From Escherichia coli (lineage in GTDB: Bacteria; Pseudomonadota; Gammaproteobacteria; Enterobacterales; Enterobacteriaceae), in the NCBI RefSeq assembly GCF_003334815.1, contig NZ_QOWO01000073.1: 5,353 bases of DNA. One strand, given 5' to 3'. Below are positions 5,251-5,353 of this stretch, in pieces. The notes under the pieces are model-generated. The model searched no databases, was not told the origin of the DNA, and was given only the letters and a program-made list of their open reading frames with translations. Numbering within the stretch: the first letter of the stretch is position 1; each line of letters begins with the position of its first letter. A program made the translations under genes and the position numbers.

Positions 5251-5278
5251 CAGGCGTAAAAAAACCGGGGAATTATCC

Positions 5279-5353
5279 CATAAGCGCTAACTTAAGGGTT
5301 GAACCATCTGAAGAATGCGACGCCTCGGTGCCTCGTTAAGACGATGCCTCGCG
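5279..5353. mobile_element. Probable terminal inverted repeat and first ~75 bp of an IS186-type (IS4 family) insertion sequence, truncated by the window end
   Basis: CATAAGCGCTAACTTAAGGGTTGAACC... starts right after a GC-rich stretch (CCGGGGAATTATCC), which fits the GC-rich target preference described for IS186. I also recall an IS186 copy next to yfeA/pdeA in E. coli K-12. The terminal sequence is recalled from memory, not verified; no transposase ORF is visible in the window. Confidence 0.4.

Follow-up and report, generated by a model that had tools for sequence, protein, structure and literature searches.

IS186 chooses its insertion sites by a well-described rule. The target 5'-GGGG(N6/N7)CCCC-3' was derived from 59 reconstructed insertions in mutation-accumulation lines, the genome holds only 54 such sites, and the element inserts in either orientation (Lee et al., 2016; PMC5009759). 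Independent IS186 insertions into one GGGG(N6)CCCC site, again in either orientation, have been seen experimentally (PMC5009759; PMC3045373). Known hot spots include the lon promoter, fimA and menC (PMC5009759; SaiSree et al., 2001, via PMC3045373), and they have the same G4-N6-C4 target as the site studied here, which lies between pdeA and nupC of Escherichia coli. Further shared features are a duplication consisting of the core and part of the G/C runs, a fixed position that takes insertions of either orientation, and recurrence. Two differences were found. At the pdeA/nupC site the target is a terminator-like hairpin between convergent genes and not a promoter or a coding sequence, so that the expected effect of an insertion is the loss of termination and not of initiation or of a protein. 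Moreover, recurrence is seen here in natural isolates and not in laboratory lines.

The window, meaning the whole stretch of 5,353 nt that was analysed, is the reverse complement of the E. coli K-12 MG1655 chromosome at about 2,515,540-2,521,007, and its part 2853-5353 is base for base the reverse complement of NC_000913.3 2515540-2518040. Window base 5279 corresponds to NC_000913.3 2515614, which lies inside a feature annotated as 'mobile_genetic_element, insertion sequence:IS186C' (2514273-2515617) that holds insL3 (b2394) and sits between nupC (b2393) and pdeA (b2395). The third IS186 of MG1655 was given at 2512296-2513638 in an older coordinate system (PMC3045373). The IS end, the duplication and the neighbours pdeA and nupC all coincide, and the window element is thus the same object as IS186C, with no difference at the IS junction. 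Elsewhere the window departs from MG1655 in two ways: 115 bp with one tRNA-Ala(GGC) gene have been lost, and the base at position 1 is different. Since the MG1655 record annotates the element, the IS186 copy beside pdeA is already known. In RefSeq records the same open reading frame is labelled 'IS4-like element IS421 family transposase'; this is a naming difference only, IS421 being the PGAP name for the transposase family. We take IS421 to be an isoform of IS186, in keeping with the MG1655 product name of insL3, 'putative IS186/IS421 transposase'.

We conclude that window 5279-5353 is almost certainly the right (transposase-distal) end of a full-length IS186 of the IS4 family, the copy catalogued as IS186C in MG1655, that its target was a shared bidirectional terminator-like hairpin which is lost on insertion, and that insertion here has recurred, in one orientation as well as the other.

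The target site has the form of a terminator common to pdeA and nupC

In the window, pdeA ends with the TAA stop codon at 5248-5250 on the plus strand; base 5250 corresponds to NC_000913.3 2515643, the annotated end of the gene. The annotated coding sequence spans 3061-5250 (2,190 nt, 729 aa). A mechanically called open reading frame starts at a GTG at 2944 and covers 2944-5250 (768 aa), and the RefSeq product name varies by record between 'bifunctional diguanylate cyclase/phosphodiesterase' and 'sensor domain-containing phosphodiesterase'. An earlier reading made from the sequence alone had placed an IS186-like sequence 28 nt past the pdeA stop. The spacing is exactly 28 nt (5251-5278), with IS sequence from 5279 onwards. 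The letters quoted in that reading do stand at the given place. Of its range, 5261-5353, positions 5261-5278 do not belong to the IS but are host DNA made up of the A-tract, the left half of the hairpin and the target duplication.

The unoccupied site reads AAAAAAACCGGGGAATTATCCCCGGCTTTTTT. Between the pdeA stop and the opposite-strand nupC stop, a locus without the element (L003) has the sequence ...GATTAACAGGCGTAAAAAAACCGGGGAATTATCCCCGGCTTTTTTATGTATGGTCTTACAGC..., and removal of the IS and of one duplication copy from the E. coli BW25113 locus (L001) gives this empty-site sequence exactly. Its core, GGGGAATTATCCCC, can be divided into GGGG-AATTAT-CCCC, which fits GGGG(N6/N7)CCCC and is the sole GGGG(N6-7)CCCC match in the 6.3-kb locus. 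The window has the motif CCGGGGAATTATCC at 5265-5278; the tail from 5279 reads CATAAGCGCTAACTTAAGGGTTGAACCATCTGAAG..., with AAAAAAACCGGGGAATTATCC immediately before it. The sequence-only reading had recognised a GC-rich target of the kind used by IS186, and this target is indeed the published GGGG(N6)CCCC motif (PMC5009759).

In the empty state the target is the centre of a stem-loop with the arms CCGGGG and CCCCGG and the loop AATTAT, preceded by an A7 tract and followed by a C and a T6 tract, and situated in the 49 bp that separate pdeA from its convergent neighbour nupC. The left half of this ancestral hairpin (A7, the CCGGGG arm and the loop), as defined from the L003 empty-site sequence and its fold, lies at window 5257-5278, where it has been cut off by the IS. 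A consensus scan called the empty site terminator-like on both strands (two sites in the 300-bp region, 0.6 expected). The RNA fold reached -22.5 kcal/mol (z -5.6) on the pdeA strand and -22.6 kcal/mol (z -6.1) on the nupC strand, and none of 200 shuffles folded as well on either strand. The empty site has the form of a bidirectional intrinsic terminator common to pdeA and nupC, and it is predicted from its sequence to terminate transcription in vivo.

On the reading that we favour, the transposase recognised the palindromic target GGGG-AATTAT-CCCC and made staggered cuts, from which the 10-bp duplication GGAATTATCC resulted. This target is the stem-loop between the A7 and T6 tracts in the pdeA/nupC gap, and the insertion splits the hairpin and leaves both pdeA and nupC without this signal. 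As the symmetry of the target motif leads one to expect, natural E. coli show recurrent hits here in one orientation as well as the other.

IS186 has inserted repeatedly at the pdeA/nupC site

The sequence-only reading had marked the junction as variable between strains, which was borne out by the distribution of site states. Three 150-bp junction queries, used at 80% coverage so that the junction itself was required, were counted in 5,426 complete E. coli genomes. The site was empty in 4,441 of these genomes and occupied in the K-12 orientation in 479 and in the opposite orientation in 467, the latter two counts being inflated by many laboratory K-12 derivatives and clonal isolates and thus not to be taken as natural frequencies; in the remaining 39 genomes none of the three queries reached the threshold.

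The element in opposite orientation at locus L002 occupies exactly the same position, is flanked by the same duplication and differs by 1 base from the K-12 copy. This similarity could be read as the trace of one ancestral insertion that was later inverted in place, in which case the site would not be a recurrent target: whichever way the element points, the left and right junctions and the 10-bp duplication are the same, and the IS sequences are 0-1 bases apart. To our knowledge, no inversion mechanism exists for a single IS with 23-bp inverted repeats. More directly, a variant duplication, GGAATGATCC, which carries a SNP in the loop in both of its copies, was found in both orientations and on diverged flanks, namely in strain B25FEP (L006) in the K-12 orientation and in strain CH4796 (L007) in the opposite one. 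This requires separate insertions into a different target allele. In strain FCI23 (L008) the element is in the K-12 orientation and the flank is 64 substitutions from K-12 in 2 kb; taken together, GGAATTATCC and GGAATGATCC each occur in both orientations, with flanks differing by up to 65 substitutions per 2 kb. The documented independent insertions at one site in either orientation (PMC5009759; PMC3045373) also speak against inversion in place, which we therefore regard as very improbable. Two duplication alleles in two orientations imply at least four independent insertions, and with at least four such events the pdeA/nupC site is a natural, recurrent and orientation-neutral IS186 hot spot.

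The B25FEP copy (L006 3076-4413) is 1,338 bp long and its transposase is annotated as frameshifted, i.e. it is a decayed copy.

Anatomy of the complete element

The window ends 75 bp into the element, and the anatomy of the whole IS was accordingly read in genomes with an identical junction. The BW25113 copy (L001) measures 1,339 bp between CATAAG... and ...CTTATG. Read in inverted orientation, its ends agree for exactly 23 bp before they diverge. A single open reading frame encodes a transposase of 370 aa (insL) on the strand opposite to pdeA, which is the minus strand of the window. With 133.3 bits this protein exceeds the curated cut-off of 115 for NCBIfam NF033592 (IS4 family transposase). 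The flanking direct repeat is GGAATTATCC (10 bp). Its left copy is at window 5269-5278, as defined by both junctions in L001 and L002 in comparison with the empty site in L003, and its second copy, which the window does not reach, follows the other end of the IS. Under an alternative definition of the ends (ATAAG...CTTAT), the terminal C and G belong to the target and the duplication becomes 12 bp, GGGAATTATCCC at 5268-5279. The sequence-only reading had proposed a comparison with the IS186 ends and a search beyond the window for the InsL transposase frame, the opposite inverted repeat and a 10-12 bp target-site duplication. The inverted repeat was matched exactly, and in the junction-sharing genomes a 370-aa IS4-family insL lies inside the element, a perfect 23-bp repeat ends it 1,339 bp away and a 10-12 bp direct repeat flanks it. 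Inverted repeats, size, IS4/DDE-type transposase, target motif, duplication length and multicopy distribution are thus all those of IS186, a member of the IS231/IS186 group of the IS4 family.

Were the window extended, insL3 would occupy about 5450-6562 on the minus strand, and because insL lies on that strand beyond the window, the end in the window is the transposase-distal one (IRR). Past 5353, IS186 would be expected to continue for another 1,264 bases, with GGAATTATCCCCGGCTTTTTT and nupC behind it. The tail might instead be a remnant that a deletion left behind, either a solo inverted repeat or a truncated copy, in which case no intact element would follow. Such a reading can draw on the fact that the window stops 75 bp into the element and on the one tRNA-Ala unit fewer and the different base 1, by which the source genome is not the reference. 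However, the whole element was present in every junction-sharing genome inspected (1,339 bp in L001, L008 and L009; 1,338 bp in L006), and window 2853-5353 does not differ from MG1655, whose element is intact, so that a remnant has hardly any probability. From this identity to MG1655 and to the junction-sharing genomes we infer that the present copy, of which the window shows only 75 bp, is full-length.

The tail of the window is IS186 sequence

IS sequence starts at 5279 as CATAAGCGCTAACTTAAGGGTTGAACC... and runs to the end of the window. This tail (5279-5353) equals the terminal 75 bp of IS186. It lies on the minus strand, makes up the first 75 of the 1,339 bp of IS186C when these are counted from the right end, and is identical to BW25113 (L001) 3326-3400 and to NC_000913.3 2515540-2515614. 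The sequence-only reading had noted a resemblance to the IS186 terminal inverted repeat. In fact the 23-bp repeat CATAAGCGCTAACTTAAGGGTTG is matched at all 23 positions by 5279-5301 on the plus strand (IRR), where it has its single occurrence in the window and is the same as the repeat at the opposite end of the element. Among 200 dinucleotide-preserving shuffles, none contained a match to the inverted repeat even with 3 mismatches allowed. The 75-bp tail was found at 8,421 places in 2,144 of the 5,426 complete E. coli genomes, on chromosomes as well as plasmids, with a median of 3 and a maximum of 22 copies per genome, and for 2,622 of the 2,684 records with a match the best place reached at least 99% identity. 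Because of this multicopy distribution the tail is a mobile repeat and not a chance resemblance. That a short GC-rich or palindromic sequence beside a terminator matches IS186 by accident, for which only the short length visible in the window could be adduced, can be dismissed in view of the 23/23 match to the repeat, the shuffles (0/200 at 3 mismatches), the 75/75 identity to thousands of IS copies and the annotation of the element in the reference genome MG1655.

Consequences of the insertion for termination

At an occupied site 1.3 kb separates the two stem arms, and both pdeA and nupC thereby lose the hairpin signal. The consensus scan found no terminator-like site at either IS junction. 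The junction on the pdeA side (window 5251-5300) folded with -8.8 kcal/mol (z -0.1) and the one on the nupC side with -7.2 kcal/mol (z -0.2), in both cases no better than shuffles. For pdeA, the sequence-only reading had considered both a gain and a loss of termination through the IS. By the scan and the folds a terminator-like hairpin is removed, whereas none is supplied at the junction. Duplicated half-sites (GGG-AATTAT-CCC with T6/T7) were considered as weak terminators of transcripts that leave the IS; this was not supported, as the scan did not call them and the minimum-energy folds did not contain them.

The next terminator-like site in the direction of pdeA belongs to the IS itself; it is antisense to insL and about 554 nt away from the IS end that the window shows. 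It consists of the hairpin GCCGGAAAGGGAGCTCCGGC followed by TTTTTTATTA (TTTTTT), at L001 3879-3906 or approximately window 5832-5859. A substitute terminator for pdeA is thus possible half a kilobase downstream, inside the IS. Two intrinsic terminators have been described whose E. coli BLAST hits overlap IS186 (preprint, 10.1101/2024.07.17.603904). The IS-internal hairpin shares its last 13 nt, CCGGCTTTTTTAT, with the 3' half of the host terminator-like site (L001 4675-4687), probably by chance between two sequences that both have a GC stem and a T-tract.

Given this arrangement, pdeA transcripts of K-12 would continue into the IS and be antisense to insL there. Transcripts of nupC would, in the K-12 orientation, cross the left end of the IS and read insL in its sense direction. 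A promoter at the junction or directed outward from the IS was also considered. The only sigma-70-like match, TTAACA-18-AATTAT (L001 3294-3323), was rejected: it is host sequence, it is also present in empty sites, and such matches are no more frequent than shuffles give. We found no literature on IS186 together with nupC or yfeA, and therefore none on the effect of this copy on its neighbours.

tRNA genes elsewhere in the window

At Rfam gathering thresholds the window contains only two tRNAs. One is a single tRNA-Ala(GGC) gene at 2777-2852, where MG1655 and BW25113 have two identical tandem copies (alaX and alaW). The difference is the loss of exactly one 115-bp unit, just upstream, with a junction that can be placed anywhere within 2777-2857, and is consistent with recombination between the repeats or with a collapse in the assembly. 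The single-copy form occurs in 137 of the 5,426 complete genomes, in scattered lineages (O157:H7 EDL933, KO11FL, BL21(RP) and others). It is also present in strain TUM2820 (L004, 4278-6800), which has the K-12 PdeA protein (WP_000497400.1), flanks with 0 differences from K-12 and an empty IS186 site, and which is here a near-isogenic natural empty comparator for K-12. Strain 300490 likewise combines a single tRNA-Ala gene with an empty IS186 site.

The other tRNA is a tRNA-Val(UAC) gene at 2-77 on the minus strand; beside it, window base 1 differs from MG1655, and no other substitution separates the two. When the whole window is matched to K-12 genomes, the match falls into 3 pieces that span 237 extra bases (115 and 122), which suggests that the valU-valX-valY tandem array has also been shortened, rearranged or collapsed in the source genome or its assembly.

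Implications

IS186C is a real but ordinary insertion, a catalogued copy in the best-studied bacterial genome, whose choice of target follows the published IS186 rule, and it matters little beyond correct annotation. Selection on IS186 target sites was explicitly left open by Lee et al. (2016; PMC5009759). One might speculate that the recurrent insertions at the pdeA/nupC site are retained because the loss of the common terminator changes pdeA/nupC expression or the transcription of insL. We consider this improbable, and nothing examined here supports it. If it were true, convergent read-through and antisense transcription would take place between pdeA, which encodes a c-di-GMP phosphodiesterase, and nupC, which serves nucleoside uptake; alternatively, nupC would drive insL transcription in just one of the orientations. 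On this reading the orientations would be alleles that differ in function.

At this recurrent hot spot, presence and absence of the element are homoplasic and thus unfit as a simple phylogenetic marker. In addition, K-12 is without a terminator-like signal that about four fifths of the complete E. coli genomes have kept, and 3'-end data on pdeA or nupC transcripts from K-12 are to be generalised with caution.
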